Assembly: GCA_016180945.1 (NCBI GenBank)
Contig: JACPAG010000002.1
Location: forward strand, 128,210 to 192,209
Source: Candidatus Aenigmatarchaeota archaeon
Lineage (GTDB): Archaea > Aenigmatarchaeota > Aenigmatarchaeia > GW2011-AR5
DNA length: 64,000 nt
Reading direction: 5' to 3'
In this document: piece after piece, positions 26,744 through 48,522 of the stretch
Numbering within the stretch: the first letter of the stretch is position 1
How the letters are laid out: the number at the start of each line of letters is the position of its first letter
Translations under genes and position numbers: made by a program
The notes under the pieces: generated by a model
Seen by the model: only the letters and a program-made list of their open reading frames with translations
Told to the model about the DNA's origin: nothing
Databases searched by the model: none

Positions 26744-26862
26744 ATGATATGCTCTGATATAACCCCTGACTAAAGTCAGGGGTTTCCTTGAGCATGGCAT
26801 CCCAACATTGTTTGTGTATTATCTACCGACTAAAGTCAATAGTTTTAAACGATGTTGAGGAT
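26744..26862 (+). mobile_element. Family D two-lobed palindromic element, short form
   Basis: ATGATATGCTCTGATATA-ACCCCTGAC-TAAA-GTCAGGGGT-TTCCTTGAGCATGGCA shared with 48246-48522. Confidence 0.75.
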
Positions 26863-27101
26863 CACATCTTCCTTATATACCACCGACTAATTCACGGAGA
26901 GCAGAACTCTCCTGAATTCCGCAGAAACCTCTGGTTTCTGACGGAAAGTCGGTGGTTTGCAAGACATCGAAGAACAAAATGTTCTTCGTTGTCTGCACGG
27001 AAGGAACTCCGTTCCTTCCTGTGTGAGAAGATGGGATCCAGATGAACATTGTATTTCATCCATGGTCTAAAGACCATGGTTTTCAATGTCCATCTTAGAT
27101 A
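26861..27101 (+). mobile_element. Family C element, 241-bp form with two paired-hairpin inserts
   Basis: Backbone nearly identical to 31230-31350; 56-bp insert at 26889-26944 and 64-bp insert at 26960-27023. Confidence 0.8.
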
Positions 27102-27231
27102 AACCTCTGCCTCGGTCTTGCCTACCTGGGTTTTTAGGCAAGTCGGAAATAAAGAGAGGTTTCATTATTTAATAAATATGTAGACTGAATGCAACCATCT
27201 ACTTCCCTAAGCCTGCTAATTAAAGAAAGTA

Positions 27232-27639
27232 TCACGCCATAGGAGCCTGCGCCAGAGGCCTGCGAAGTTTGGTTCTGGCCATGCTTGTCAACAAAACCGA
27301 ATTCACCCTTTTCTCCAGCTTCGAGAGCCTTTCGTCAACCTTTTTTTCCAGTTCCTGACTAGGTTCACCTTCTCCGCCCGAAAACTCTATCCGTTCCATG
27401 AAATTGTTTATCTTGGCGGTCAGCTCGCTGACATTGTTAAGAAGGTCCGTGACCTTTTTCATCATTTCCGAATTTATTTTTACCATCTCGTCTATGACGC
27501 TCTGGTTCGCGCGGACTATTTCGATAAGCTCGCGCGTTGTTTCCAGCGACGAACCTGTCCGCTCCACTTTCTCCAGCCGCCTTTCCAGCCGCCTTACCGG
27601 ACCTAGCGGAACAATCTCGTACTCCTCTTCCTCGCTCAT
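27232..27639 (-). CDS. Hypothetical coiled-coil protein
   Basis: MSEEEEYEIVPLGPVRRLERRLEKVE...; heptad pattern. Confidence 0.7.
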   Translation of the reverse strand: MSEEEEYEIVPLGPVRRLERRLEKVERTGSSLETTRELIEIVRANQSVIDEMVKINSEMMKKVTDLLNNVSELTAKINNFMERIEFSGGEGEPSQELEKKVDERLSKLEKRVNSVLLTSMARTKLRRPLAQAPMA

Positions 27640-27981
27640 ATTAACTATATTTCCTTGTTTGGTATATAAAGTTTTTCGGCCAAAAACCTGAGGTGATTTG
27701 ATGGAGTGTCCTGTTTGCAAGCAAAGGATGATAAAGGTGGGATAGAAGCCCTAGTCGAATCCGCAAAAAGTCGCGGCGAATCAGAAGGATTTGCCAAGAG
27801 CTTGTGGTCACATTACCATTAGTTTAGATAGGATAAACTAATTTTTCGGCGTGGAAAACCGCTAGTACTCCGGCTTGATCATGCATAAGGTATACCTAAA
27901 GTAAGAAATCCTACACTTCTTCTATGTACGCTTGTCACAGTTTCGTTTTTTAAACTAGCCATTCTTCACAACTCAAATTAT

Positions 27982-29643
27982 TTACTCTTCCATTCCATTC
28001 ATGCCGCCCATTCCGCCGGCTCCCGGTGGCATACCGCCCGGCATTCCGCCGCCTCCGGACTTGGCCGTGATGATGTCGTCTATTCTTAGAATCATTTCGG
28101 CAGCTTCTGTTGCTGATTTTATTGCCTGCGTCTTGATTTTCAGCGGCTCGATGACATTAAGCGTTTCCATGTCAGCCGCAGTCCCGTTTATGACGTCAAC
28201 GCCGTAGGCTTTTTTGCCTTTTTCATGCAGCGTTCTCAGCTCGACCAGAATATCTATCGGGTCCTTGCCGGTGGATTCTGCAAGCGTGCGCGGTATTATT
28301 TCAACGGCCTCGGCAAATGCGTTTATAGCCAACTGTTCGCGCCCGCCTACTGTTTCTGCGTATTCCCTCAGTCTGCGCGCAAGTTCTATTTCAATTGCCC
28401 CGCCGCCCGGCACGACCTTGCCGACCTCCAGTGCGCTCATAACGCCCAGGACGGCGTCGTCCATCGCGCGCTTCACCTCGTCGACCACATGTTCTGTCCC
28501 GCCGCGGACTAATATCGAAACTGCTTTCGGGTTCTTGCAGTCCCGCACAAAAATCATTTCTTCGCCGGCTAATTTCAGCTCCTCGACAAGGCCGGCTTCT
28601 CCCAGGTCTTTGGGCGTAAGCTCGTCAACGCTTGAGACGATGCTGCCGCCTGTTGCCTTGGCCATCTTTTCCATGTCGCTTTTCTTGACCCTTCTGACAG
28701 CGGCTATTTTTTCCTTGGCCAGGTAGTGCTGCGCCAGATCGTCTATGCCCTTCTGGCAGAAGAGAACATTGCAGCCGGAAGCTACGACCTTCCTGGTCAT
28801 ATCTTTCAGCATCTTGCTTTCCTGGTCCAGGAACGCCTGCAATTGGTCAGGGCTTGTTATTCTGATTTCGGCGTTTGTTTCTGTTTCCTTGACCTCCAAT
28901 GCCGCATCCAGCAGTGCAATCTTGGCGTCTTTGATCTTCTTCGGCATGTTGGAATGGACTATTTCCTTGTCGATGACCAGCCCTTTCACCAGTTCCGTGT
29001 CGTCAATGGAGCCGCCCTGCTTCTTTTCGATTTTAACGTCATCCTTGTTTATTTTTATCTTGCCGTTCTCCGTCTCTGAAACCATTCTGACTGCATCCAC
29101 GGCCAGCTCAGCCAGCGATTCCTTGGCAGCCTCGCTTCCCTTGCCTGTCATCGCCGTCATTGCAATCTTGGCCAGCGTCTTTGCATCGTTTATGGTAACA
29201 TGCTGGCCAAGGCCATCAAGAATTTCCAGCGCCTTGCTCTTCGCAAGCCTGTAACCGCGCAGAATAACAGTCGGATGTATCTCCTGTTCTAATAGGTCTT
29301 CAGATCTCTTCAGCAGCTCGCCGGCAAGCACAACCGCCGTTGTCGTGCCGTCGCCTACCTCTTCTTCCTGTGTCTTCGCGACCTCGACAAGCATTTTTGC
29401 GGCAGGGTGCTCTATCTCCATCTCGCTTAGAATAGTAGCGCCGTCATTCGTTATAGTGACGTCGCCGATAGTGTCAACCAGCATTTTGTCCATGCCCTTC
29501 GGCCCTAACGTAGTTCTGACAGATTCAGAAACAGCCTTAGCCGCAGCAATGTTCCTTGATTGCGCGTCACGGCCTGTAGTCCTTAGCGTCCCTTCGGGTA
29601 AAATAAAGATTGGTTGTCCCCCTAATTGTCCGATATTTGCCAT
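27982..29643 (-). CDS. ths: Thermosome (group II chaperonin) subunit
   Basis: [31 protein letters not shown]-terminal GGM tail. Confidence 0.98.
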
Positions 29644-29724
29644 ATTCCATCCACCTCGATTTTATAGTTTTTAATCTCCGGTTTTCCCGGAAGAAATGCA
29701 ATTTTCTTTTGCCAGCTTTTCAAA

Positions 29725-29755
29725 ACAACTAGACGCACATCAGTGCGTCAGGTTG
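29725..29755 (-). repeat. Family E hairpin repeat
   Basis: CTGACGCAC-N4-GTGCGTCTAGTTGT on the reverse strand; copies at 42995 and 47761. Confidence 0.65.
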
Positions 29756-29807
29756 CCAAAAGCTGGTATACTTCCATACACAGCTATTGTGCAAAAGTTT
29801 AAAAAGG

Positions 29808-30695
29808 TTAGCCTCTCTTAAGAAGTTTTCGCAGCTCCCTGGCGCTGCTCAGTTCACGGAGCTCTTTTTCTTTTATAGACGGCACGTCCAGAGAAGTTTC
29901 CTCTTTTGTTACGGCAAGAACCGGCATTTTTGCGGTTTTTGAAAACCTGAGAAGCCCTGATTCGTTTTTTTCCAGATATTCGTTGTCGCCGGCCTCTGAC
30001 AGCACGATAAACCTTTCCCTCGCTATGATATTAAATGGCGTCTGGTACACCAGTTCCGTTTCAAACCCCAGCTTGTTCATGTCCCGCGAAACGTGCATTT
30101 CAAAGGCATTTTTCGCGTCGTTTGGTTTCACATTCAGCTGAAAGTCGCTCAAAGAAAAATGTTCCATGATGCTGGCTCCAAGGGCCTTTTCCATTTTCTG
30201 CGCTGTCGTATATTCAGTATTTGCAGTACTGCGCTCATGCTCGTATACGCTTTTTTTTGTTATTTGTGCCTTGTCGGCTAACGCCCTCTGCGTCAGCTTT
30301 TCTTTTGCCCTGCCCTCCCTAAGCTTCTCTGCGTTCACTTTTACAAAAAAACCGCCGCGAAACCTGTAAAGGAAAGGGAGTTCCCTGAAAACCAGTATGT
30401 TTTCCAGCGTTTTCGGGGTTACTGTAGGAATTTCAAATCTGTCGTAGATGACACCGTTTTCCAGCGTTTCCCGCCTGGTTCTCTGCCCTATTACGAGCGC
30501 CGTGGCAGAAAGAGTCGTTGAAAGTATTTTGAGATTGTTTGCTTGGCTGAACTGCAGAGAATCGACGTTGCCCAATAATTTTAAAAGAACCATGTCCCTT
30601 TTTTTCCTGCCAACTACGTCAAAGCAGCCCGAATATTCCGAATAGTCATACTGTGCCTCTTCCAGTATGCTTATTACCTCTTCCCTGATTTCCAT
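29808..30695 (-). CDS. Archaeal Cro/C1-HTH transcriptional regulator (COG1395-like)
   Basis: CFDVVGRK..LLKLLGNVD, FYRFRGG-type segment, LTQRALA...SVYEHE HTH. Confidence 0.82.
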   Translation of the reverse strand: MEIREEVISILEEAQYDYSEYSGCFDVVGRKKRDMVLLKLLGNVDSLQFSQANNLKILSTTLSATALVIGQRTRRETLENGVIYDRFEIPTVTPKTLENILVFRELPFLYRFRGGFFVKVNAEKLREGRAKEKLTQRALADKAQITKKSVYEHERSTANTEYTTAQKMEKALGASIMEHFSLSDFQLNVKPNDAKNAFEMHVSRDMNKLGFETELVYQTPFNIIARERFIVLSEAGDNEYLEKNESGLLRFSKTAKMPVLAVTKEETSLDVPSIKEKELRELSSARELRKLLKRG

Positions 30696-30749
30696 AATCA
30701 GAGTTAGTCTGCAAAGATTTAAAATGTTATAAATGCATTTCTTAAGGTC

Positions 30750-31014
30750 GGGCCGGTAGCTCAGTATCCATCCCTTTCTTTCAAAAGAAAGGTCTGGATC
30801 AACCCCAAAGAAATATGGAAAATATTATCTTCCATAGGAACATGGGGTTGATAAGGGCGAGAACCCTAGGTTCTTGCACTTATTGGGAATTGGTAGACTT
30901 CGGCGAGATGTTTGTTGCCGAAGTTCTCGTAAGAGCACTAGTCTTATACGACAGCTGAGCTGAAAAATAATCTAAGATAACTAGCGGTCGAGAGTTCGAT
31001 CCTCTCCCGGCCCA
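30750..31014 (+). tRNA. tRNA-Ile(UAU) with canonical 37/38 intron (30949-30978) and large hairpin-rich D-loop insert(s)
   Basis: Acceptor GGGCCGG/CCGGCCC, A73; anticodon arm CTAGT-CT-TAT-A^A-ACTAG; BHB central helix CTTA/TAAG; T arm GAGAG-TTCGATC-CTCTC. Confidence 0.85.
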
Positions 31015-31090
31015 TTTAGGCTTTTCTTTTTAGAAAAAAGAAAAGACCTATGGAAAAGAAAAAATAATATTGGATATGACGCAACATAAC

Positions 31091-31122
31091 ATAATATGGC
31101 AATCGACTTGCGAAGCAAGGGG
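31091..31122 (+). repeat. Family G element, minimal form
   Basis: ATAATATGGCAATCGA-CTTGC-gaa-GCAAG-GGG. Confidence 0.65.
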
Positions 31123-31229
31123 ATATATACAAAGCAAAACCGATATCTATTTATACCGTATAAAATCAACTTTGATTTAGAAATATTTCAAAGGTGATAA
31201 AAATGGCAAAGAAAAAAAAGAGATAAGTA

Positions 31230-31350
31230 ATCACATCTTCCTTATATACCACCGACCAAAGTCGGTGGTTTGTGAGAAGATGGGATCCAGATGAACATTG
31301 TATTTCATCCATGGTCTAAAGACCATGGTTTTCAATGTTCATCTTAGATA
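31230..31350 (+). mobile_element. Family C element, minimal 121-bp form
   Basis: ATCACATCTTCCTTATATA-CCACCGAC-caaa-GTCGGTGG...CCATGGTC-TAAA-GACCATGG-TTTTCAATG...CTTAGATA. Confidence 0.8.
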
Positions 31351-31354
31351 ATCA

Positions 31355-31759
31355 TCAAAAAAATCTGGTCCTGCCAATTTTTCTTTTGTTTTCTCTTCTC
31401 CATGTAACCGAAATCTTCTGTTCGTGTCTTCTCCAGTTTCTTTTCCGTGACAAAACAAATCTCCTTTCGACTGCAGTCGCAACCCTGTGAGCCTCCCTGT
31501 CTACGTCAAAACCGTATTTTTTTGACACGTATTTTTCGACGCATTCGTGGACTAGCACCGGAAGCAAATCCTGTTTTTCGACATACCTGCTCACATAAAT
31601 TATATTCTTGTGCCTGTTCCAGTCTGCAACGTTTTTTTCATGAATTAATTTAAAGCGGTATGCTATTTTCTTCCTGAGAAAAAACATGGAAACTGTTTTG
31701 CCGTTGATTTTGACGCTGCTCACGCTCTCGGAAGAAAGTCTTTTTATCAGCGGTGCCAT
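31355..31759 (-). CDS. Hypothetical basic protein with HExxE...H motif
   Basis: LVHECVEKYV...EAHRVA. Confidence 0.6.
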   Translation of the reverse strand: MAPLIKRLSSESVSSVKINGKTVSMFFLRKKIAYRFKLIHEKNVADWNRHKNIIYVSRYVEKQDLLPVLVHECVEKYVSKKYGFDVDREAHRVATAVERRFVLSRKRNWRRHEQKISVTWRRENKRKIGRTRFF

Positions 31760-31802
31760 ATTAATTATTTGTCTGGTTTATAAATATTTTCTCTGTCAGA
31801 AG

Positions 31803-32327
31803 CTATGCTCTTTTCTTTGAGAAAATAGAAATAAATCTTCCTTCATAAAGGAGTTTAACAACTTCCTCGGGAGAAAATATGCGCCCGTTCATGCAGACAT
31901 AAATTCCCGGTTTTAGTTCCTGAACTTTTGCAACCGAGTAGCCAAGATTAAACGGTGCATCAGAAGGTGCAAATCCTATTAAGGGAATCAGAGAACCCGT
32001 AAAGACTATTGTCTGGTCATTTCTCTTCAGTCCTGACTTTAGGTATTTTGCAGTATCCGGCATCGCATAGGTCCCGTGTGTGATGATGATCTTTTTATGG
32101 GGGCTATTTTGGATGACCTTTAAAATATTTTCCATGTCGTGTTGATTCATGGCTCTGCTGTCCTTCATGCAAACTTCTGTAAATTCTGTTTTTTCGTGGA
32201 GCTTTAGGCTCTTTATGAAAGAAGGAATGCCTGAACGCTCAGCGGGGACTGCGGTGTCTCTGGTCCCGTCATAAACAGAATCTATGGTCCCTCCTGTAAT
32301 TACAAAATGTATTATCTCGTTTCCTAT
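31803..32327 (-). CDS. Stand-alone asparaginase N-terminal-domain protein (no in-frame ATG before the first motif; possible ATA start)
   Basis: In-frame upstream extension IHFVITGGTIDS, then MKDS, ITHGTYAM, GSLIP, DAPFNLG. Confidence 0.78.
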   Translation of the reverse strand: MGNEIIHFVITGGTIDSVYDGTRDTAVPAERSGIPSFIKSLKLHEKTEFTEVCMKDSRAMNQHDMENILKVIQNSPHKKIIITHGTYAMPDTAKYLKSGLKRNDQTIVFTGSLIPLIGFAPSDAPFNLGYSVAKVQELKPGIYVCMNGRIFSPEEVVKLLYEGRFISIFSKKRA

Positions 32328-32361
32328 AAATCTATCATTCTGATAGAGTTTTTAAATAGAA

Positions 32362-32841
32362 TCAGCCCTGGTAATACGCCTTCCTTGTCTTGAATTCAAG
32401 GGTTTCCCAGTTCGTGGAAAGCTTCTTGCAGACCTTGCCAAGTTCAGTCCCTAATTCACTGTTCCAGAAGTCCCACGTCTTTCTTATCCAGTCCAGCGTT
32501 TGCTTTTCGTTCGGCCTTACGATAAGCAGGTTGTTCTCCCATTTGAGGACCTGTAGTTTTTTGTAAATAGCGAATAAAGTTTGACGCTCTTCCTTTGTTA
32601 CCATGTTCTGCTCTACCATGGACGCAAAACAATCAGAGCCCGCTACTATAGGCTCCAGAATCCGCTCTGTGAATGAAAAAAGCCTCTCGGAAATCTCCGT
32701 CCTGATGTGGTCGAATATTTCATTCTCGTCTTCGATGTCGAACTTGAACGTTTCCCTTAATTGTGTGAGATGCGGCAGGTTGAATTTCTCCTGCGCCTTC
32801 CTGTATCGCTCAATAATTTCGGGGTTCATCGTAATAACCAT
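32362..32841 (-). CDS. Hypothetical helical protein
   Basis: Clean ORF MVITMNPEIIERYRKAQEKFNLP... Confidence 0.65.
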   Translation of the reverse strand: MVITMNPEIIERYRKAQEKFNLPHLTQLRETFKFDIEDENEIFDHIRTEISERLFSFTERILEPIVAGSDCFASMVEQNMVTKEERQTLFAIYKKLQVLKWENNLLIVRPNEKQTLDWIRKTWDFWNSELGTELGKVCKKLSTNWETLEFKTRKAYYQG

Positions 32842-32972
32842 GATATGGAAACTATAAAAGTGTTTGTATCGTTCTTTTGTGGGATTAAGTAAACTGAAAT
32901 GCTGATAAGGCAAAAATTTTGGGTTTTGTCCAGAACAAAATATTTCATCTTCGCTGCATACCTATTTTGACT

Positions 32973-33120
32973 TTATAGTGAAACAAGAAAGTAATACCAT
33001 ACTACAGCTTGTTTCACAGACACCCAAAAAGCAAAGCTTTTTGGTGCACCAGAAAACTTTGTTTTCTGCGTGTAGTCACCAAAGGTATAGTATCCTGATT
33101 ACCTCTTTGGATGACTATAA
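32973..33120 (+). mobile_element. Family B element, 148-bp form with one paired-hairpin insert
   Basis: TTATAGTGAAAC...ATGACTATAA ends; 52-bp insert ACCCAAAAAGC...CTGCGTGT. Confidence 0.75.
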
Positions 33121-33141
33121 AAGGTTTTTCTCCAAATTTAA

Positions 33142-33798
33142 ATGATTGAAATGCGTCTTGTCATAAAGATAGGAGGCTCTTTGTCTATCGGCAAGGACGG
33201 CCCTAAAAAGGAATATTTCCGCCGCCTTTTGCCGGTTTTGAAAGAACTTGACAAAAATAACCAGCTTATCATATCAATCGGGGGCGGCCGGTTCATAAGA
33301 AAATATTACAAGGCAGTCGAGAAACTCGATCTGACACCTGAACAGATGGAATGGATTGCAATAGAGCTTCTCCGCGTTAACGTCCGGTTTCTCTCTTTTC
33401 TGCTGAACAAAAACTCTATATTCACCCTTCAGGAAATGGGAAAAAATACCTCTGGCGTGATAGGCGGCATCCGCCCTGGCCGCTCGACTGATGCGAACGC
33501 CGCTTATGCAGCCGGCGTCATCGAAGCGGACTATTTTGTCAAGTTAACCAACGTGAACGGCATCTACGACAAAGACCCCAAACGATACAAGAACGCGAAG
33601 AAGCTCAACCATATTTCATTTGACCAGCTTAAAAAATACGCATCCGACGGGAAGCCGGGAAAATACGGCGTCCTCGACAAGCTGGCCATCGAGACGGTAG
33701 CAAAAAACAGGATAAAGACCGTCGTCATGAACGGGAAAAATCCGTCAGACCTTCTCCGTCTGCTGGACGGCGAAAAGGTCGGCACACTTATATCATAA
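33142..33798 (+). CDS. pyrH: Uridylate kinase
   Basis: VIKIGGS, GGGRFIRKY, PGRSTDANAA, TNVNGIYDKDP. Confidence 0.93.
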   Translation: MIEMRLVIKIGGSLSIGKDGPKKEYFRRLLPVLKELDKNNQLIISIGGGRFIRKYYKAVEKLDLTPEQMEWIAIELLRVNVRFLSFLLNKNSIFTLQEMGKNTSGVIGGIRPGRSTDANAAYAAGVIEADYFVKLTNVNGIYDKDPKRYKNAKKLNHISFDQLKKYASDGKPGKYGVLDKLAIETVAKNRIKTVVMNGKNPSDLLRLLDGEKVGTLIS

Positions 33799-33898
33799 TT
33801 GACTCGGCGGCTATCATCCAGAGAAACAGCCCGATGTAAAGCACGACAGCCCCGAAAGCGATATACTTCTCTTCCTTGGTCAGTCTTTTGGCAGGCAT
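33788..33898 (-). CDS. Putative micro membrane protein (36 aa)
   Basis: MPAKRLTKEEKYIAFGAVVLYIGLFLWMIAAESIMI*; single TM; overlaps the pyrH end by 11 nt. Confidence 0.4.
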   Translation of the reverse strand: MPAKRLTKEEKYIAFGAVVLYIGLFLWMIAAESIMI

Positions 33899-33936
33899 AA
33901 TTAATTCTTTATTTTCTTTGTTTATTAAGTTTTTGA

Positions 33937-34008
33937 TGGGCCCGGCAGGAATTGAACCTGCGGCCTCTACCGTGTGAAGGTAGCGTCATACCACTAGACC
34001 ACGAGCCC
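33937..34008 (-). tRNA. tRNA-Val(CAC), intronless
   Basis: GGGCTCG...CTACC-TT-CAC-AC-GGTAG...GCAGG-TTCAATT-CCTGC-CGGGCCC-A. Confidence 0.95.
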
Positions 34009-34050
34009 AGATTTAAAAGTATTGTCACAAATCTATAAAAGTGATTTACC

Positions 34051-34404
34051 GTGGAAAATAAAAGAATTCTTGACAAGGTTTTGTTGGATTTTTTAATAGG
34101 CGGTGCCCTTGTTTCTCTGGCGATATTTATCGGTATTTTGACTTCACCTTTGATAGGGGGCATTATTGCAGCGCTGCCTATACGCGTAGGTATAACAATT
34201 TTACTGGGGGGCTTTCATGAAGGGGAAGAATTCGCAAAAAAAATGATAGAGGGCTCCCTTCTCACTTATGTGCCGACTTTGTTTTTCTTTCTGACGCTTT
34301 ACTTTACAGCAGACAAAATCGGCCTTTTAAAATCATTTGTCTTGGCGTCTTTTGTGACATTAATTTCACTGATAATTGTATTCAAATTAGCAGGAAAATT
34401 CTGA
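34051..34404 (+). CDS. Small 4-TM membrane protein (DUF3147-like)
   Basis: FLIGGALVS...GGIIAALP. Confidence 0.65.
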   Translation: MENKRILDKVLLDFLIGGALVSLAIFIGILTSPLIGGIIAALPIRVGITILLGGFHEGEEFAKKMIEGSLLTYVPTLFFFLTLYFTADKIGLLKSFVLASFVTLISLIIVFKLAGKF

Positions 34405-34413
34405 TGTGATTCT

Positions 34414-35257
34414 ATGAAATCCACAGCAACGGCAAACGCAAACATCGCCCTTGTCAAGTACTGGGGAAAGCGGGATGATAAGCTAATTCTTCCACAAAAC
34501 GGTTCCATAAGCATGACGTGCGAAAGCCAAAGTCGTATCGCAATCAAACTTTCCCGTGGCTGCCGGCTTGGCATCTTCGGCTTCTGGATTTGCTGCCCTT
34601 ACCTTGGCAGCTGTTTCTGCCGCTGGCATGAAGCTTAACCAGAAAGAATTGACAATTTTATCCCGCCAAGGCTCCGGTTCGTCATGCAGAAGCATAGCCG
34701 AGGGCTTTGTCGAATGGTACCGCGGAAAGAAGAGTGACGGCTTGGACAGCTACGCAGAAACCATAGCCAAGAAGGATTATTGGCCGGAGTTCAGGATGAT
34801 AGCCACGATAGTCTCGGAAGGCAGGAAAAAAGTATCCAGCAGGGCCGGCATGGCCCAGACGGTTGAGACGTGCCCTTATTATATCGGCTGGCTGGAGACT
34901 GCAGAAGAAGACTTGGAGATTATAAGAGAAGGAATAAAGAATAGAAATTTCTCTGCTGTCGGACAAACAGCAGAATACAATTGCCTGAAAATGCACGCGC
35001 TGATGATGACCACAAAGCCGCCTATTCTATACTGGATTCCGGCTACTGTTGAGGTTATGCACGCAGTACGGCATCTCCGTGAAGAAGGCCTGGAATGCTA
35101 TTTCACAATAGACGGCGGACCGCAGGTCAAGGTTATGTGCCTGGAAAAGGACGGAAAAGAGATAAATAAACGGTTGTTGGAGCTCAACGGCGTAAAGAAA
35201 ACAATCACGTGCAAGCCCGGAGACGGGGCAAGAATAATCGACAGGCATTTATTCTGA
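34414..35257 (+). pseudogene. mvaD: Diphosphomevalonate decarboxylase with internal deletion and frameshift
   Basis: [15 protein letters not shown]...SISMT in one frame, [19 protein letters not shown]...TIDGGPQV in another; junction at ~34521-34525. Confidence 0.88.
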
Positions 35258-35297
35258 TAGGCATGATACAGCATTCAACGACAAGATTTGTGATGCT

Positions 35298-40500: not shown

Positions 40501-40502
40501 AA

Positions 40503-40568: not shown

Positions 40569-40579
40569 AGGAGGGGATA

Positions 40580-41257
40580 ATGAGGGCCGCGATTTTTGAC
40601 ATAGACGGCGTGCTTACCAAAGGCTTTGCCATCCGCCACTTCTGGAATCATCTGGCCGAAAAGGGCATAATTGACGCCTCCCCTTTGTTGACATCTAAGA
40701 AAATCTTTGACAAATTCCATAAAGGCGAGATTAGTTACAGAGAAATGGGAAATAACGTGATGGAACTCGTTGCTTTGGCATTCAGGGGAGCAAGCCAGAA
40801 AGAAGTGGATAGCGAGTCAAAAAACTTTTTCCGCTCCAATAAAATAGACCTGTTCGATTACACAATACCACTCATAAGCTTGCTGAAAAAACAAAAGCTG
40901 AAAATAATAGCAGTTTCCGGATCTACAATAGAATTCCTTGAGAATTACAAGGAGCTTCTTGGATTTGATGTCGTATTCGGAACAGAGCTTGAGATTGTAG
41001 ACGGCAAATACACAGGTTCCCTAAAAACCCGTCTTGGTACAGGAGAATCCAAGAAAAAAGTTTTGCAAAGCTTATCGGGAATGGATAGATTTATTGGTTT
41101 TGGAGACACGGAACAGGACATCCCTATTTTGGAGAGCGTGAAGGTTCCTGTAGCCCTTAATCCCAATAAAGAGTTGGAAAGCGCGGCGACAGAAAAGGGC
41201 TGGAAAATTCTTAGAGAAACAGACGATGTGGTTGAAGAGGTCAGGAGACTACTATGA
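40580..41257 (+). CDS. HAD-superfamily hydrolase (subfamily IB, PSP-like)
   Basis: FDIDGVL (DxD), VSGS, K, GFGDTEQD. Confidence 0.88.
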   Translation: MRAAIFDIDGVLTKGFAIRHFWNHLAEKGIIDASPLLTSKKIFDKFHKGEISYREMGNNVMELVALAFRGASQKEVDSESKNFFRSNKIDLFDYTIPLISLLKKQKLKIIAVSGSTIEFLENYKELLGFDVVFGTELEIVDGKYTGSLKTRLGTGESKKKVLQSLSGMDRFIGFGDTEQDIPILESVKVPVALNPNKELESAATEKGWKILRETDDVVEEVRRLL

Positions 41258-41895
41258 AAGAAGTTTTCCCGGGCATTTTCAGAGAAGGCAACAAAATCTA
41301 TACGGAAAACCTAGTTTCTGGAATAAGGGTCTACGGAGAAAAGCTCGTTAACGACAAAAGAGAGTGGATAGTTGAGCGAAGCAAGCTGGCCGCGGCCATA
41401 CTAAATGGATTGAAAGAGATGCCAATTAAGGAAGGAAGTAAAATTCTCTATTTAGGCGCCTCAACCGGCACAACCGTTTCCCACGTTTCGGATATAATTA
41501 AATTGGAAGGCATCGTCTACGCCATAGAGTTTGCAGAGAGGGTATTCAGAAACCTCATAGACCTGACAAAACAAAGGAAGAATATTGTTGCTATTATGGC
41601 AGACGCAAGGAAGCCGGAAGAATACGCGTGGGTCGAGGAGTGCGACGCTGTGTACGTAGATATCGCCGACCCGCAAGAATCGGAGATAGCAATAAGAAAC
41701 GCAAAAGAATTTTTGAAAGAAGGCGGTCATCTGCTCGTTGCAATCAAGTCGCAGAGCATAGACGTCACAAAGCCGCCTGCGCAGGTTTATAAAGAAGAAT
41801 CAGAGAAATTAAAGAAAGCCGGATTTTTCGTTATTCAGTTAATAGATTTAGAGCCATATGAACAAAAACATGCTATGATAATCGCAAGAAACTAG
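41254..41895 (+). CDS. flpA: Fibrillarin (rRNA/tRNA 2'-O-methyltransferase)
   Basis: RSKLAAAI, LYLGASTGTTVSHVSD, ADARKP, IKSQSID. Confidence 0.96.
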   Translation: MKEVFPGIFREGNKIYTENLVSGIRVYGEKLVNDKREWIVERSKLAAAILNGLKEMPIKEGSKILYLGASTGTTVSHVSDIIKLEGIVYAIEFAERVFRNLIDLTKQRKNIVAIMADARKPEEYAWVEECDAVYVDIADPQESEIAIRNAKEFLKEGGHLLVAIKSQSIDVTKPPAQVYKEESEKLKKAGFFVIQLIDLEPYEQKHAMIIARN

Positions 41896-42947
41896 CCTGT
41901 TATTTCTTCCAGCCGTTCCTTGAACTTTTCCCAGTCTTTCGCGTCCAGTGTCGCCCCGCCCGCCGCGTCATGGCCGCCGCCCGAAGCCTTCAGCCCTCTT
42001 GCTGCCGTCTGGAAAATCCTTCCTACGTCGAATTTCTTTGCCTGGTTTCTTCCTGAAAGTTTTATCTTGTTGCCCGTTTTTTCGTACACCAAAACCAGCT
42101 TATCCAGATGCTTTTCGCTAAGCTTGGTCGACACCGGCGAAGCAAGATTATACCGGGATTTTATATTGTAAAAAAGAATTTTGCCCTTCTTCTCTGCGCT
42201 TTGTTCTGCGTCGGCCATTATCGACATCATCTCATTTTCTATCGTCTTGAAAGATTCGATAAGCTTGTTGCCGTCTTTGACCGAAAAATCTTCCGGTCCT
42301 TTCATTTCCCCGAATATCTGCACCATCTCCTCGCACGTTAGAGCTTTCGTAGCCTTTGCTGCTGAAATCATGTCCGCCAGACGGCCGAAATGTGTTTCGT
42401 ACAAAATACTGGTTTTAAGGGAATATTTTTTTACAGCCTCTTTTACAAGGTCCTGCGAAAAATCCAGATTGTAATCAGAAACCGCTCCGACAGCGGCTAT
42501 CCATAAGAATTCGCTAATGTCCTGCAAAGCCGAACATATCTTATAAGTGCAATAGCTTGCGGATTTGTAAATATCGGATTTTTCAAACCTCGGGTTATAA
42601 TGCACGATGTTGTCAGAATTCATGTCCCTGAATATCTGATGATGGTCAATAATAAGTATGTCAGCCATGCCGGACAGATTTTTGAGAACGCTCTGCTGCT
42701 GGTCTATGGCTATGTCAAGGATTATGATCTTGCCCGGCACGGTTGTCTGGACTTTCCGTATCAGATTTTTTTCCGTAGGCATGGGCTGTGAGATTATGTA
42801 CGGCTTATTGTCCTTCAGATACTTGTTTATAAGAATACAAGAACAGATGCCGTCGCCGTCGTTATTGAAAATTACCACCACGTTGTCCGTGGTTTTTATG
42901 CCCTTTAGGAAGTCAACGGCCCTCTTGAAGACCTCGTCGTGGTTCAT
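41892..42947 (-). CDS. DHH/DHHA1 phosphoesterase (RecJ-like)
   Basis: NNDGDG, LDI, IIDHH, GAVSD, GGGHDAAGG. Confidence 0.85.
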   Translation of the reverse strand: MNHDEVFKRAVDFLKGIKTTDNVVVIFNNDGDGICSCILINKYLKDNKPYIISQPMPTEKNLIRKVQTTVPGKIIILDIAIDQQQSVLKNLSGMADILIIDHHQIFRDMNSDNIVHYNPRFEKSDIYKSASYCTYKICSALQDISEFLWIAAVGAVSDYNLDFSQDLVKEAVKKYSLKTSILYETHFGRLADMISAAKATKALTCEEMVQIFGEMKGPEDFSVKDGNKLIESFKTIENEMMSIMADAEQSAEKKGKILFYNIKSRYNLASPVSTKLSEKHLDKLVLVYEKTGNKIKLSGRNQAKKFDVGRIFQTAARGLKASGGGHDAAGGATLDAKDWEKFKERLEEITG

Positions 42948-42994
42948 GGTTTTTTTCTTTTGGCGCAAGCTTAAATAAGCTCACTTTTTCTACG

Positions 42995-43026
42995 TAGACT
43001 GACGCACTGCGGTGCGTCTAGTTGTT
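42995..43026 (+). repeat. Family E hairpin repeat
   Basis: GACTGACGCAC-tgcg-GTGCGTCTAGTTGT. Confidence 0.65.
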
Positions 43027-43056
43027 CGAAAAAGTAGCTTGTCTTCGAAAAGCAAA

Positions 43057-43144
43057 GCATTCGGAGAATCAAAGATTCTCCGATGCATCAATGAGCTTTG
43101 CTCATTGCTTGTTTTTCGGGACATCAGAAACCGTAAGGTTTCTG
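43057..43144. repeat. Cluster of hairpin cassettes
   Basis: TCGGAGAATC-aaa-GATTCTCCGA; CAATGAGC-ttt-GCTCATTG; CAGAAACC-gtaa-GGTTTCTG. Confidence 0.7.
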
Positions 43145-43195
43145 CTTGCAGTCAAAAAGAAAGGATGTAAAAAATAATATGTGGTTTTGGGGAGA

Positions 43196-46030
43196 TTATA
43201 GCTTCTTTATTTCAATTCCTATTTTCCTGCCTTCGAAGTCTATTGTTGCGCCCTTGGCTTTTTCGAATGCAATGGATGCGGCGCCGACATCTTTCTGCAT
43301 CTGTTTCCTGTACTTCTCCAGTTCGTTGCACCCTTCAAGTTTTAGGGAAATCTCGTCCTGTACAACCAAACCGGCCTTTTTGCGCATGTCCTGCACTTTT
43401 CTCAGCACTTCGCGCAGCAATGCCTCTTCCTTCAATCCCTCAGTTAACCTGGTGTCAAGATAAACTTTTCCATCATTGACCTCTTTTGACAAAAATTTAT
43501 TCCCGATACCATTTTCCTTATCCGAACAGCTTACTTTTTTCACATTGCACATCAATCCTATTACAGAAGACAATTTCTCAACTGCCTCCTTGTTCTCCGG
43601 GCCGCTTACTCTTACTTCAGCCAGCGGCCATCTCGATTTTATCTTTGCCTCGGCCCTCATGGAGCTTGCGGTCTCTACTATTGTCTTTGCCAGAGACATA
43701 TTTGCCTCGAGTTCTTTGTCAACCAGTTTTTTATCAGCCTGCGGCCAGTCACAGAGATGGACGGACTCTTTTTTTTCTCCCAGTGGCTTCAAGACATCCT
43801 GATAGACATGTTCTGCCAGAAAAGGGCATAGAGGAGCCAGCAGTTTTGCCACGGTGCCGCTTACGTGGAAAAGCGTATGCATGGCCGCAGCTTTGTCTTT
43901 GCCTTCGTAACCAGGCCAGACCCTGTCGCGGACGAGCTTTATGTACCATCTCGAAAAGTCGTTGAGAATAAAATCGTACAGTTCTGCAGCCGCCTTGTGG
44001 CCGTTGTATGCCTGAAAGTTTTTGGTGAAGCTTTCAACCAGAGAATTCAAGCGGGACAGCATCCACTTGTCTTCTATATTCAACCTTTTTGTCTTTCCTG
44101 TTTTAGTGGCGTATGATTTCACAAAGTTAAACGTATTCTCGATGACGTTGAAAGACTTTGATATCTCTTCTATCTCTTTTGGGTTGAAATAAAAATCATT
44201 CCATGGAGCTGAAGACAGCAGATAGTACCGTAAAACGTCACGCCCGTATTTTTTGACGGCATCAAAAGGGTCTACTATGTTGCCCTTGCTTTTTGACATC
44301 TTTATTCCGTGAGAGTCAAGCACAAAGCCGTGGAAAAGTATGTTTGTGAACGGCGCTCTGTCGAATGTTATCACGCTCGTTATGAGTTCCGAGTTCCACC
44401 AGCCGCGTATCTGGTCCGGCCCCTCCGTCTGAAAATCACACGGCCACAGATCGTTGAAAAGTTTTTTATTTTTCGGATAGCCGAGAGACGCCCAGCCGGC
44501 AAGGCCGGAGTCAAACCATACATCCAGAACGTCCTTTATTCTTTCCATCTTCCCGCTGCATTTGCATTCGAGCAAAACTTCATCTATATATGGTCTGTGC
44601 AAATCCCCTAATTTCGCAGGCAGCTCTTCTGATGAACCTATCACCTTAACTGATTCGCATTTCTCGCATGTCCATATCGGCAACGGTATCCCCCAGTATC
44701 GCTGCCGGGATATAGGCCAGTCGCCCAGGCTTTCCAGCCAGTTGTGGAATCGTTTCTGCGCCCAGTCCGGGTACCATTTTACCTTTTCGTTTTCTCTTAT
44801 CAATTTATCCCTTATTGCCGTGACGCGGAAAAACCACTGGGGCACAGCCATCTGCAGCAACGGGGACGAGCATCTCCAGCACAGGGGATAATCGTGCGTG
44901 ACCTTTTCTTGAAACAGCAGCGCGTTCCTGTCCTTCAGGTCCTGAATAATTATCTTATTGGCATCTTTGGCGTACATCCCCGCGTATTTCCCGGAATTCT
45001 CATCAAACCTTCCGTCAAGCTTTAATGGATTTACGGCAGGCAGGTTGTTCTTCATGCCTACGTCGTAGTCTTCCTTGCCGTGCCCCGGAGCTGTATGAAC
45101 CAATCCTGTTCCCTCTTCCAAACTGACATACTGATCTGAAAGAACCACCCTGTGGATATTTTTCAGATTTTTATGGAACGGAAGAAGGTCAGAAAGTGGA
45201 TGCAGGTACCGGAGACCTTCCATCTGCTTGCCTTTGAACGACTCTATAACTTTGTAATTCGTGATGTTAAATTTACTCATCAATGTTTCAAGCAAATCCT
45301 TTGCTACTATCAAAATTTCATCATTTATCTTTACTTTGACATATTCCGCATCCGGTTTAACCATCACGCCCATGTTTGACGGTATCGTCCATGGAGTAGT
45401 TGTCCAGACTAACAGGTATTCGTTTTCTTTTCCGGCTGCTTGGAATTTTACGTAGATACTCGGATCAGTTACTTTCTCGTACTCGATTTCATTATAAGCC
45501 ACGGCCGTCTGGCAGTGGCTGCAGACATGGACGGAATAATTGCCCTTGAACAAAAACCCCTTTTGATAGGCGATTTTAAAAGTCGCCCATGCGCCTTCTA
45601 TGTAATCGTTCGTCAGGGTGAGGTACGGGTTCGCCCAGTCCATCCACACGCCCAAATCCTCGAACTGCTGGTTCATCACGTTTATGAACCGCGTCGCATA
45701 ATTTCTGCACGCCAGAATGAATTTTTCCACGCCAAAGGTTTCTATTTCCTGTTTCGATTTTATCTTCAGCTCCTCCTGAACCTTGTTCTCTATCGGCAGC
45801 CCGTGCGTATCGTATCCCGGCTGGTCCCACACCGCAAAGCCGTTCATGCGGAAAAAGCGCAGGTACATGTCCTTCAGTATCTTGTTCCACGCCGTGCCCA
45901 TGTGTATCGCCCCGGTCGCGTAGGGCGGCCCGTCCAGGAAGTAGAATTTTTTGCCTTTCCTCTTCGACTTCTGGTAAATGCTGTTTTGCCGCCAAAAGGC
46001 TGCTACCTCTTCTTCCTGTTCTTTTTTCAT
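43196..46030 (-). CDS. ileS: Isoleucyl-tRNA synthetase (archaeal/eukaryotic type)
   Basis: DGPPYATGAIHMGT, GYDTHGLPIE, WTTTPWT, GTGLVHTAPGHG, DWPISRQRYWG, KMSKS. Confidence 0.95.
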   Translation of the reverse strand: MKKEQEEEVAAFWRQNSIYQKSKRKGKKFYFLDGPPYATGAIHMGTAWNKILKDMYLRFFRMNGFAVWDQPGYDTHGLPIENKVQEELKIKSKQEIETFGVEKFILACRNYATRFINVMNQQFEDLGVWMDWANPYLTLTNDYIEGAWATFKIAYQKGFLFKGNYSVHVCSHCQTAVAYNEIEYEKVTDPSIYVKFQAAGKENEYLLVWTTTPWTIPSNMGVMVKPDAEYVKVKINDEILIVAKDLLETLMSKFNITNYKVIESFKGKQMEGLRYLHPLSDLLPFHKNLKNIHRVVLSDQYVSLEEGTGLVHTAPGHGKEDYDVGMKNNLPAVNPLKLDGRFDENSGKYAGMYAKDANKIIIQDLKDRNALLFQEKVTHDYPLCWRCSSPLLQMAVPQWFFRVTAIRDKLIRENEKVKWYPDWAQKRFHNWLESLGDWPISRQRYWGIPLPIWTCEKCESVKVIGSSEELPAKLGDLHRPYIDEVLLECKCSGKMERIKDVLDVWFDSGLAGWASLGYPKNKKLFNDLWPCDFQTEGPDQIRGWWNSELITSVITFDRAPFTNILFHGFVLDSHGIKMSKSKGNIVDPFDAVKKYGRDVLRYYLLSSAPWNDFYFNPKEIEEISKSFNVIENTFNFVKSYATKTGKTKRLNIEDKWMLSRLNSLVESFTKNFQAYNGHKAAAELYDFILNDFSRWYIKLVRDRVWPGYEGKDKAAAMHTLFHVSGTVAKLLAPLCPFLAEHVYQDVLKPLGEKKESVHLCDWPQADKKLVDKELEANMSLAKTIVETASSMRAEAKIKSRWPLAEVRVSGPENKEAVEKLSSVIGLMCNVKKVSCSDKENGIGNKFLSKEVNDGKVYLDTRLTEGLKEEALLREVLRKVQDMRKKAGLVVQDEISLKLEGCNELEKYRKQMQKDVGAASIAFEKAKGATIDFEGRKIGIEIKKL

Positions 46031-46051
46031 GAAATCACTTGTTGTTTGAGC

Positions 46052-46172
46052 ATCACATCTTCCTTATATACCACCGGTTAAAACCGGTGGTTTGCAAGAA
46101 GATGGGATCCAGAAGACATTGCATATTTTATCTGCTGCCTAAAGGCAGCAATTTTCAATGTCTTCTTAGATA
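46052..46172 (+). mobile_element. Family C element, diverged 121-bp form
   Basis: Same backbone as 31230-31350 with compensatory changes in all three stems. Confidence 0.8.
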
Positions 46173-46252
46173 ATAAATAGGAAATCTTTATTTAAAGTGC
46201 CCGAAGTTTTATAAATATTCGATTATAAAATGGCATAGGGCTCGTTAAAAAT

Positions 46253-46382
46253 TATAATCTGGCAATCGACTTCGACTGTAAGGAGCTAAAATTACACGCG
46301 AAGACCAGAGGTCTTCGGTGCATCGAAGAACCAAGAGGTTCTTCGAATGTAATATGGGATACGACTTGCCGGAGGCAAGGGG
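46253..46382 (+). repeat. Family G elements flanking a paired-hairpin cassette (46295-46349)
   Basis: ATAATCTGGCAATCGACT ... CGAAGACC-aga-GGTCTTCG, CGAAGAAC...GTTCTTCG ... TAATATGGGATACGA-CTTGCC-gga-GGCAAG-GGG before the MBF1 ATG. Confidence 0.65.
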
Positions 46383-46385
46383 TAT

Positions 46386-46823
46386 ATGGAGTGCGAGTTA
46401 TGCGGCAGGAATGCCGTTAGAAAAGCCGTAGTCGAGGAAGCTCTTCTGAACGTCTGCAGCGACTGTGTTCGTTATGGCACCGAGGTCAGGGAAGTCGAGA
46501 AACCGGTAAAAGAAAAACCCGTGTCGCTGGAAGACGTGTCTCTGGACCCTAGCTTTGCAACGATAATAAAAAGCAGACGCGAGTCCCTCGGCTTTGACAG
46601 GGAAGAGTTAGCCAAAAAGATAGGCGAGAAAGTTTCAGTTATAAGCCGCGTAGAGAAAGGCATGCATCCGACTGTTCATCTGACAAAAAAACTGGAAAAG
46701 GCGCTGAAAATAAAGCTTCTCGGCTACGAGTTCAGGGAGCAGCGGCTAGTTGCTTCAAAAACAGGCGAACTGACGCTGGGCGATGTGGCTGAAGTGCGTG
46801 TAAGGAAAAAACGGACAGCCTAG
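46386..46823 (+). CDS. mbf1: Archaeal multiprotein bridging factor aMBF1
   Basis: N-terminal Zn ribbon CELC/CSDC, C-terminal Cro-HTH, TLGDV. Confidence 0.9.
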   Translation: MECELCGRNAVRKAVVEEALLNVCSDCVRYGTEVREVEKPVKEKPVSLEDVSLDPSFATIIKSRRESLGFDREELAKKIGEKVSVISRVEKGMHPTVHLTKKLEKALKIKLLGYEFREQRLVASKTGELTLGDVAEVRVRKKRTA

Positions 46824-46824
46824 T

Positions 46825-47610
46825 TCATCGTCTTTTTAATCTAGTCTCAGTTGAATCTTTCATAACAATGTTGAATGATTCCCAGAATGACTTATCTTCA
46901 TCTACTTCCCATGCAGGTACCCAAAAATCCCCGTCCCTTGAGAAGCCCTCTCCCCTTAGGTATCTGTCAATTCCTGGAAGGTGCCCGGCTCCATAAGTCA
47001 CACCTACAGGCACGTCAAAAGCTTCAGTCTCCATGGTATGAAACAACCTGCGATTTCTCTCAGTTACGACAAGTTTGTGATTCATAGGGCCAAGGATTGC
47101 ATACGACAGGGCGTTACTTATAAAAGGAAATCTATACACGAATAACGCCATGCCTTTCATGAATCGCGATAATTCCTCGGGATGTTTCTTATGCGCTTCT
47201 TCGAAGTCCCTTATCCTTTCAAGGCGCTGTAGCCTTCTTAACAACCTTTGCGGGGCCATGTTAATGAATTCTGTTGCAGTCATGTCGGCATTTTTCCAGC
47301 CATTATAAGTCAAGGAGTCTTTCTGATCAGTCATTCTAAGATATCTTGCAAAAGTTCTGTAGATATCAGGCAACTTGTCCAAAGAACGAATATAAGGCCT
47401 CTTTTCAGGCAATACAGCGGCTTCATCAAGAGGAGGTCTTATGCCCTCAAAAAATCCTGCGGGCAACTTATCTATCTCGGCTTGAATCCTTGAATAGTAG
47501 CTTGGCAAACCTACGTGGACCATACCGGCAACTACTATTTCTGCGTCCCCTCTTCTATAACCTACAACAGGAGTGTAAAGTCTGTTATCTTTAACTTTGA
47601 GGAAATGCAT
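46825..47610 (-). CDS. Hypothetical protein with TraB/GumN(Tiki)-like motifs
   Basis: GMVHVG..YY, FFEG, ERN, YGAGHLPG. Confidence 0.55.
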   Translation of the reverse strand: MHFLKVKDNRLYTPVVGYRRGDAEIVVAGMVHVGLPSYYSRIQAEIDKLPAGFFEGIRPPLDEAAVLPEKRPYIRSLDKLPDIYRTFARYLRMTDQKDSLTYNGWKNADMTATEFINMAPQRLLRRLQRLERIRDFEEAHKKHPEELSRFMKGMALFVYRFPFISNALSYAILGPMNHKLVVTERNRRLFHTMETEAFDVPVGVTYGAGHLPGIDRYLRGEGFSRDGDFWVPAWEVDEDKSFWESFNIVMKDSTETRLKRR

Positions 47611-47760
47611 GCGAAATAGAAGTTCATAGACTTCTTAAAAGTTAATAATGCCCACAACACTAATTTAAATCTCATTCTTAACAAATAGAACTTGGCCATT
47701 AAGAACAAACTGCGAAGCAGTTTGTAATGATTTGGTGCTAAAGTTTTTGCCGGCTAAACA

Positions 47761-47783
47761 GACTGACGCACAGATGTGCGTCT
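47761..47783 (+). repeat. Family E hairpin repeat
   Basis: GACTGACGCAC-agat-GTGCGTCT just upstream of tRNA-His. Confidence 0.6.
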
Positions 47784-47800
47784 TTTTGTTTAAAGCCGAT

Positions 47801-47914
47801 GGCCGCGGTGATGTAATGGCAGCATGAAGGCCTGTGGAGGTCTTTCTTAGGAAGAAAGCCCTAGAAAGAACCGCAGCATAGTCTTCCGTCGGGGTTCAAA
47901 TCCCCGCCGTGGCC
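47801..47914 (+). tRNA. tRNA-His(GUG) with encoded G-1 and a ~42-nt 37/38 intron (~47838-47879)
   Basis: G-1:C73; anticodon arm AAGGC-CT-GTG-G^A-GTCTT; BHB-like helix CTGT/GCAG. Confidence 0.9.
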
Positions 47915-47925
47915 CTTTATTTTTA

Positions 47926-48177
47926 TCATAAAGATGGACTTCTCCATCTATGCGGATTAGCCAATAATTCTATTGCCGGATCAGCATGGGCAGAATCATC
48001 GCTATTTATCTCAAAGTTATGAGCAGCATAGCCTTCTGCCAGTCGCCTTAATCCGCTGTAATCTCCGGTTTCTCTTGCTTTTGTCAATGCTCCGAATATA
48101 TCCCCTGCTGTCACATAAGGACGACCTGCCCAGTCACTTCCTCTTGTTCTAACATCGCCGATTTTATGTTCAGACAT
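47926..48177 (-). CDS. Hypothetical protein
   Basis: 83 aa ORF immediately downstream of tRNA-His; no motif. Confidence 0.45.
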   Translation of the reverse strand: MSEHKIGDVRTRGSDWAGRPYVTAGDIFGALTKARETGDYSGLRRLAEGYAAHNFEINSDDSAHADPAIELLANPHRWRSPSL

Positions 48178-48245
48178 AATCCCTTCTATACTTCACCAAA
48201 ATAGAAATAAAACGTTATTCCCACTTTCTTCCCATACATTTAGAG

Positions 48246-48522
48246 ATGATATGCTCTGATATAGCAGACTTCTGAAGAAGTCTGCAGATTGCATAAATTG
48301 AAATTTATGCAATATAACTCTGACTAAAGTCAGGGGTTTCCTTGAGCATGGCACAAGAAGGAACATAGTTCCTTCTGTGCAGAAGGACTAACAAGTCCTT
48401 CTTGCATCCCAAAGACATTGTATTTCACAAGAAAGACCTGAAAGGTCTTTCTGTGCAGGAAAATCTTTGCTTTTCCTTGCATCACACGACTAAAGTCGTG
48501 TGTTTTCAATGTCTTTGAGGAT
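48246..48522 (+). mobile_element. Family D element, 277-bp form with three paired-hairpin inserts
   Basis: Backbone of 26744-26862 interrupted at ~48264, ~48352 and ~48429 by hairpin pairs. Confidence 0.78.

Follow-up and report, generated by a model that had tools for sequence, protein, structure and literature searches.

Two-lobed repeats in an Aenigmatarchaeota genome as probable palindrome-associated transposable elements of the IS200/IS605 type

Are the two-lobed repeats of ~120 nt that recur in a 64,000-nt stretch of an Aenigmatarchaeota genome (hereafter the window) mobile DNA or structured RNA genes? The window corresponds to positions 128210-192209 of contig C2 in an archaeal metagenome-assembled genome (MAG; 987,615 bp in 9 contigs, 45% G+C, 83.65% complete), which codes for a thermosome and for aMBF1; relatives with the same repeat are Candidatus Aenigmatarchaeota, DPANN archaea from groundwater. 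A sequence-only reading sorted the repeats into families C and D and left two options, miniature elements derived from IS605 or a family of structured non-coding RNAs (ncRNAs). According to the present analysis, C and D are very probably two subfamilies of one non-autonomous IS200/IS605-type element, a palindrome-associated transposable element (PATE). The first option thus stands as far as the IS200/IS605 derivation goes, whereas the relatives belong to the tnpA-only IS200 group and show no link to tnpB; the second is not favored, given the random orientation, the non-syntenic positions, and the IS200-like ends. PATEs were described by Dyall-Smith et al. 2011 (PMC3119063), so the kind of element is already known, but the family is new in Aenigmatarchaeota, for which a literature search returned no paper on it.

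Copies are described on the forward strand of the window, as they were originally read; the likely active strand is the complement. About 34 genomic copies were found with blastn, folding, and a covariance model (R1) built from 11 canonical copies. The first lobe of a canonical copy reads ATCACATCTTC-C-TTATATA-(CCACCGAC-TAAA-GTCGGTGG)-TTTG-n-GAGAAGATGGGAT-CC, with the hairpin in parentheses, and the second lobe, which follows CC, reads AGAAGACATTG-TATTTCAT-(8 bp-TAAA-8 bp)-TTTT-CAATGTCTTCT-TAG-ATAA. Three parts set the D type apart from the C type: outer stem 1 (ATGCTC/GAGCAT), the first hairpin (CCCCTGAC/GTCAGGGG), and the tail (GAGGATAA). On the complementary strand, the left half starts after TTAT with C(T/C) and an outer arm, continues with AAAA, a hairpin with a TTTA loop, ATGAA(A/T)A, and the second outer arm, and is followed by GG(ATC); the right half consists of an outer arm, (C/G)AAA, a hairpin with a TTTA loop, TATATAAG, and an outer arm running to the terminal T(G/C)AT. 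Canonical copies measure 117-123 nt, and expanded copies of up to ~290 nt contain hairpin cassettes only, so that all are too short for a transposase. The lobe-2 motif CTAAAG-N7-TTTTCAATG occurs 4 times in the window, compared with 0.02 occurrences expected from shuffles.

Covariation, for which the sequence-only reading had proposed a check, is strong in both hairpins and in outer stem 2. In the 11-copy alignment, 23 of the 41 predicted pairs show compensatory change. In a set of 52 copies, 46 of them distinct, drawn from many genomes, both partners vary in 31 of 35 pairs, and the fraction of paired cells is 98% and 97% for the two hairpins and 88% for outer stem 2. The covariation score equals 0.508, compared with 0.148 for shuffled data (reached in 0 of 500 shuffles) and 0.06-0.085 for slid partners. 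As for outer stem 1, it is out of register in the cmalign alignment A2 (49% of cells paired), and individual folds and the 11-copy alignment were used instead; it folds in single copies from 12 genomes. Between the C copies at 31230 and 46052, the exchanges reported earlier are present (GAC/GTC to GGT/ACC, CCATGGTC/GACCATGG to (C)TGCTGCC/GGCAGCA, and AGATGAACATTG/CAATGTTCATCT to AGAAGACATTG/CAATGTCTTCT). The statement that every stem changes between these two copies, however, holds for the hairpins and outer stem 2 but not for outer stem 1, which is identical in both and differs only between the C and D types. Similarly, the loops that had been called invariant are only nearly so: the loop at 31256 reads C-CAAA-G and that at 46078 T-TAAA-A, the variants across copies being CAAA, TGAA, and T-TAAA-A, and many hairpins have a TTTA loop, the exact reverse complement of the TAAA form. 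The palindromes are symmetric at the DNA level, since G.T and A.C are equally rare among the hairpin cells (11 each in ~685, with no excess of G.U over A.C) and since neither strand folds better with DNA parameters. Short forms of lobe 2 were also considered as "empty" hairpins awaiting an insert, and this was rejected in favor of hairpin deletion between short direct repeats, which is the simpler explanation.

The boundaries of the element are sharp. Across 55 copies, information content drops from ~2 bits to ~0.1 bit at the exact points where AT(C/G)A begins and GATAA finishes. TTTTCAATG, previously proposed as a TCAA-type terminus, is actually an internal loop plus an outer-stem arm beside the left-end hairpin, and the true boundary lies 13-14 nt beyond it, at GATAA. 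Target duplication is not systematic: direct repeats in the flanks were counted in 0 of 55 copies for k=3, 0 of 55 for k=5, and 3 of 55 for k=4, with 2, 3, and 5 nt at chance level. Terminal inverted repeats are absent as well, as the termini, read from the sequence as ATCACATCTTCC and CTTCTTAGATAA, do not match each other in inverted form; an 8-bp hairpin with a TAAA loop is found at either end, the two being on one strand and in direct orientation. TTAT (ATAA on the forward strand) is nearly invariant at the left-end side. It is missing at two independent tandem junctions (window 26861 and G050:C86), where body adjoins body, which is expected if TTAT is target DNA outside the element. Three copies with intact bodies have ATGA or ATTA (TCAT or TAAT on the complement) in place of ATAA. 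These observations fit TTAT as a target motif rather than a part of the element.

The copies are intergenic, many of them lying between convergent or co-directional genes within a few bases of a stop codon. Relative to flanking genes, their orientation is random (9 co-directional, 5 convergent, 5 divergent, and 10 antisense). Along contigs, orientation is clustered: 12 of 12 copies agree on the 226-kb contig C2, as do 5 of 5 in the 128-167 kb interval of C4, and only 7 switches occur in 27 adjacent pairs on contigs C2, C4, C7, and C8 (P 0.01). Such clustering is predicted by replication-coupled insertion into the lagging-strand template. GC skew was dominated by local gene orientation and could not be used for assigning replichores.

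Regarding the ends of tnpA loci, a comparison also suggested with the sequence-only reading, it was made in sister genomes because the MAG holds only a tnpA remnant. This remnant (C4:20707-20793) covers the last ~29 codons, scores 21.2 bits, below the Pfam cut-off of 23, and is followed by a right-end hairpin, CCACCGCC-TTTA-GGCGGTGG. In the same archaeal family, Y1_Tnp exceeds the Pfam cut-off in 18 of 44 genomes. Four IS200 elements with tnpA from sister genera (L081, L082, L083, and L092) have two-lobed ends like those of C and D. In tnpA sense, their left end reads TTAG, outer arm, GAAA or AAAA, hairpin, AATGAAT, and outer arm, and their right end reads outer arm, GAAA, hairpin with a TTTA or TTCA loop, and outer arm, with the GGTCAT end 10 nt from the hairpin foot. 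Taken as reverse complements, C and D align with both ends, the 3′ flank being ATGAAATA for the left hairpin and TATATAAG for the right one, and R1 matches the left end of L083 with 24.2 bits (E 0.005). Lobe 2 is therefore the left end and lobe 1 the right end on the complementary strand, which, judged from this alignment, is likely the active (tnpA-sense) strand. Since tnpA-carrying ends were found, a bridge-RNA or IS110-like reading of the two internal loops was dropped. A link to TnpB and omega RNA was rejected too, since this genome lacks tnpB and since none of eight tnpB loci from the family has an R1-like sequence nearby. Beside tnpB at two loci, L073 (G021:C56) and L074 (G046:C91), Y1_Tnp forms the C-terminal end of 368- and 491-codon frames, respectively; no C/D-type hairpins were seen near either.

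The distribution of copies is patchy and non-syntenic. The spacer between ileS and aMBF1 contains a copy in this genome only, and it has none in six other genera with the same divergent gene pair, three of which (G014, G004, and G003) are element-rich elsewhere. Copy number varies from 0 to ~39 among 41 relatives, and matches occur in 25 genomes of a 301-genome sample of the phylum, 21 of these 25 belonging to the window's own family. Genome G047, where an intact tnpA is also present, has at least 7 equally scoring copies; four of them were read, and these are identical, 118 nt long, and located at different sites. Copies from different genera are up to 92% identical, whereas their aMBF1 orthologues are 41-53% identical, which fits horizontal spread. 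A 61-nt fusion at L084 joins the 5′ half of lobe 1 to the 3′ half of lobe 2 and represents a hairpin-to-hairpin core deletion. Read depth over the elements is 30- to 150-fold in excess in four groundwater DNA runs; the sequencing runs that contain this sequence are all DNA runs. Carriage by viruses was considered and rejected: the single pattern match in viral contigs is due to chance and lacks an R1 match.

How such elements might move can be outlined by analogy with IS608 of Helicobacter pylori, whose TnpA binds subterminal hairpins on the top strand and cleaves 3′ of a TTAC located 19 nt ahead of the left hairpin and 3′ of a TCAA located 10 nt beyond the right one, guided by the four bases 5′ of each hairpin foot (AAAG at the left and GAAT at the right) (PMC3201880, PMC5934647). 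Each C or D copy would comprise both ends, left and right, of an IS200-group insertion sequence (IS) joined by 2-5 nt, the transposase gene having been lost. A Y1 (HUH) transposase TnpA acting in trans would bind the two subterminal hairpins in single-stranded DNA at the replication fork, cut on the 3′ side of both the flanking TTAT and the terminal T(G/C)AT, and release a single-stranded circle, which would then re-insert 3′ of another TTAT with no duplication of the target. Covariation of stems is expected under this scheme, since what TnpA recognizes is the shape of the hairpin, its loop, and the adjacent guide bases, not the sequence of the stem.

Like IS608, C and D have direct subterminal hairpins and a flanking tetranucleotide ~18-19 nt 5′ of the left hairpin (PMC3201880, PMC5934647). 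At the left end of C/D, TTAT stands 18 nt before the hairpin and AAAA before its foot, which is the IS608 pattern with the last pair changed on both sides (TTAT/AAAA compared with TTAC/AAAG). At the right end, the corresponding combinations are CAAA/TGAT for the C type and GAAA/TCAT for the D type, divergent copies, and the IS200 elements, a pairing that holds in 7 of 7 aligned ends; IS608 has TCAA/GAAT where these have TCAT/GAAA. Unlike IS608, C and D have neither tnpA nor tnpB, their 8-bp stems are perfect with no extrahelical T, outer stems surround the hairpins, the right end lies 19 nt rather than 10 nt beyond the hairpin, and the active strand and cleavage sites are putative.

Several results weigh against this interpretation. 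No intact tnpA was found in the 84%-complete MAG, and none was detected in four copy-rich relatives (G005, G017, G004, and G003); a cognate Y1 gene in the same cell is thus not seen here, although the definition of PATEs does not require one. Among the IS with tnpA, none was found to have ends near-identical to C/D, the likeness consisting of architecture and short motifs. The distance of 19 nt after the right hairpin departs from the 10 nt of both IS200 and IS608, and, with the outer stems, the proposed cleavage sites and the guide bases would lie at opposite ends of a helix, an arrangement for which the IS608 model has no need; neither the outer stems nor the 19-nt right tail is explained by that model. 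With RNA folding parameters, the forward strand is better by ~3 kcal/mol. No strain-level pair of filled and empty sites was obtained from the four groundwater DNA runs, in which contigs were broken at the repeats. Finally, orientation clustering is not clear in relatives G014 and G003, and the replication-coupling pattern is therefore only suggestive.

The main competitor of the PATE interpretation, that the repeats are structured ncRNA genes or cis-acting RNA elements with a fold selected at the RNA level, appears very improbable. Strong covariation in three of four stems and a layout kept across genera are what it would lead one to expect, and it gains something from the slightly better RNA fold of the forward strand and from a match to Rfam family psRNA14 at window 31236-31314. 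This match, however, scores 35.3 bits against a gathering score of 60, and the shared part is the ACCACCGnC-UAAA-GnCGGUGG hairpin only; no Rfam family is matched at the gathering threshold. Random orientation with respect to neighboring genes makes a cis role unlikely, and non-syntenic positions, copy numbers from 0 to 39, the lack of a G.U excess over A.C, and loops that are often inverted to the exact reverse complement speak against an RNA as well. Moreover, copies are truncated, fused, nested, and arranged in tandem like mobile DNA, and their ends match those of IS200. A promoter or leader role, with TTATATA as an archaeal TATA box and GAGGATAA as a ribosome-binding site, was rejected for the random orientation and because no purine-rich BRE (the element expected before a TATA box) precedes the TATA-like run. 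Regarding psRNA14, its consensus includes ACCACCGgc-UAAA-gcCGGUGGUU, and the similarity of the hairpins suggests that this proteobacterial "sRNA" may itself be derived from an IS200-type hairpin.

Two further explanations keep the link to mobile DNA and change the role of the repeats. Host adoption, in which PATEs that were once mobile are now kept as bidirectional terminators, RNA-stabilizing hairpins, or strand-polar DNA signals, would agree with the many copies lying a few bases from stop codons of convergent or co-directional genes, with orientation clustering along contigs, and with high conservation between genera. It is nevertheless very improbable: no host function is needed, orthologous spacers and many relatives lack copies, and the clustering is already predicted by replication-coupled insertion. 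In a broader form, with the elements being more than selfish DNA and taken over by the host as structured RNAs or strand-polar DNA signals, the idea has a small chance of being right; such a take-over would explain why the outer stems covary, why copies are 92% identical between genera with ~45% identical proteins, and why 12 of 12 copies on C2 are co-oriented. The least probable alternative is a system similar to repetitive extragenic palindromes and bacterial interspersed mosaic elements (REP/BIME), maintained by a domesticated single-copy RAYT (TnpA-REP) rather than being debris or derivatives of an IS. Hairpin repeats that are exclusively intergenic, the presence of Y1 transposases in the lineage, and persistence of the family across many genera are compatible with it. 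Yet the two hairpins are direct, with flanks that differ as in left and right IS ends, and inverted REP pairs are lacking; Y1 genes of the relatives are multi-copy, located at contig ends, and flanked by direct hairpins in an IS200-like manner; copies at least 92% identical in genera with ~45% identical proteins indicate transfer, not vertical co-evolution; and no Y1 gene exceeds the Pfam cut-off in this genome.

Among known systems, the PATEs of Haloquadratum walsbyi and Natronomonas resemble C and D most fully: they leave no room for a transposase, have no terminal inverted repeats and no target duplication, carry similar IS200/IS605-like palindromes near both ends, undergo core deletions between palindromes, often have small repeats inserted into the palindromes, and often lack an intact cognate tnpA in the same genome (PMC3119063). 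In contrast to them, C and D reside in a DPANN host, are only ~120 nt long, have a covarying outer stem around each hairpin that makes them two-lobed, and are related to the tnpA-only IS200 group, whereas IS1341/tnpB types are common in haloarchaea. Minimal PATE-like elements of Geobacillus stearothermophilus are also numerous ends-only copies sharing end structure with a few autonomous IS (PMC10055086); they were identified with covariance models and are mobilized in trans by one TnpA (Meers et al. 2023, PMC10055086), but belong to TnpB or IscB families, often with omega RNAs (PMC10055086), while C and D have no tnpB link. REP/BIME repeats with RAYT share with C and D the abundance of intergenic hairpins related to IS200/IS605 subterminal hairpins and the Y1 family, but REPs form inverted pairs around a single domesticated gene, whereas C and D have direct hairpins and two unlike ends, and Y1 genes in relatives behave as IS (PMC3333891). 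IS200/IS605 has been reported as the most widespread IS family in archaea (PMC13343696).

If the PATE interpretation is correct, a large share of the repeated structured intergenic DNA in this ~1-Mb DPANN genome traces to one transposition system, and annotation of C/D elements as RNA genes or regulatory leaders should be avoided. Near-identical copies across groundwater genera point to exchange of mobile DNA among these archaea. The copies also provide a compact natural set of end variants, with covarying stems and co-changing guide and cleavage tetranucleotides, that is usable for testing recognition by archaeal IS200 TnpA.

The left-end layout (TTAT, ~18 nt, AAAA, hairpin, ATGAA) is common to DPANN archaea and cyanobacteria. 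A pattern scan of 185,579 species genomes also located the lobe-2 motif in Nostocales and other bacteria. In cyanobacterium RI_101 (L048), it lies 29 nt past the stop codon of a Y1_Tnp open reading frame (E 4e-34) with a divergent tnpB, and is the left end of an IS605-type element; its sister copy L023 has TTAT, 18 nt, AAAA, hairpin, and ATGAA as in the archaeal left end. TnpA proteins of the archaeal and cyanobacterial elements are only ~25% identical, and the layout is therefore old in part of the family rather than recently transferred. Nostocales also have multi-copy two-hairpin elements of ~150 nt that end in GCATTCTTATAA and share the left-end layout with the archaeal element (Brasilonema L035, L041, L051, L064, and L069; Rhizonema L018 and L027; Scytonema L026 and L040). 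These are probably PATEs of the cyanobacterial IS605-type element.

As for the individual copies in the window, all five that had been noted (three C and two D) are present at their reported places, with C and D abutting at 26861, and all lie on the minus strand. The shared architecture ascribed to them was overstated for the D copies, one of which has a degenerate lobe-2 hairpin while the other lacks the 5′ arm of outer stem 1. Canonical C-type elements are found at 31230-31351 (122 nt; supported by an R1 match of 130.1 bits, fold, and sequence) and at 46052-46173, in the spacer of the divergent gene pair ileS-aMBF1 (132.1 bits with R1). In the former, the right-end lobe spans 31230-31286 (hairpin 31249-31268), the left-end lobe 31289-31344 (hairpin 31309-31328, followed by TTTT, or AAAA on the minus strand, at 31329-31332), and the proposed target tetranucleotide ATAA (TTAT on the minus strand) 31348-31351.

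The D-type element at 26744-26862 (variant D2, R1 match of 80.8 bits) has both lobes, with the degenerate hairpin CTACCGAC-TAAA-GTCAATAG in lobe 2 and TTTTAAACG in place of TTTTCAATG. It ends in GAGGAT without the usual terminal AA, while its sister copies C2:207348, C2:216182, and C7:56705 end in GAGGATAA. The adjoining C-type element (26861-27102, identified by sequence and fold) shares with it the dinucleotide AT at 26861-26862 and is expanded to 242 nt by two two-hairpin cassettes, one of 55-56 nt placed within the lobe-1 hairpin's TAAA loop (26891-26945, strand unassigned) and one of 64 nt between that hairpin and the 3′ arm of outer stem 1 (26960-27023). The second D-type element, at about 48318-48524, ends in TTTGAGGATAA and contains two inserted cassettes (48354-48407 and 48428-48482). 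The 5′ arm of outer stem 1 is replaced there by an unrelated palindrome (TTGCATAAATT..AATTTATGCAA in sister copy C2:207348). The same AT-rich palindrome (TTGCATAAATTGAAATTTATGCAA) replaces the left 13 nt of two D copies (window ~48290-48317 and C2:207330-207362), and is either another small insert or a shared rearrangement.

Cassettes of 55-56 nt occupy the lobe-1 tetraloop in four copies (window 26891-26945, C2:21404, C4:154190, and C4:167260), and in a fifth copy (C2:83488), that loop position holds a cassette built alike but differing in sequence. In this they are similar to the Haloquadratum SMR-A repeats, whose targets are PATE palindromes. A separate family consists of arrays of small hairpins rich in GAAG, with TACACGC...GCGTGTA as their frame, at window positions 19783-19899, 33019-33082, 46293-46350, and 62529-62580; their hairpins are of the same kind as those forming the C/D cassettes.

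Apart from the repeats, the window contains a tRNA-like gene at 30750-31015, with GGGCCGGTAGCTCAGT at its 5′ end and GGTCGAGAGTTCGATCCTCTCCCGGCCCA at its 3′ end, the two being separated by ~190 additional nt. Neither ARAGORN nor the Rfam search at gathering threshold reports it, and it may be a multi-intron or otherwise disrupted tRNA.

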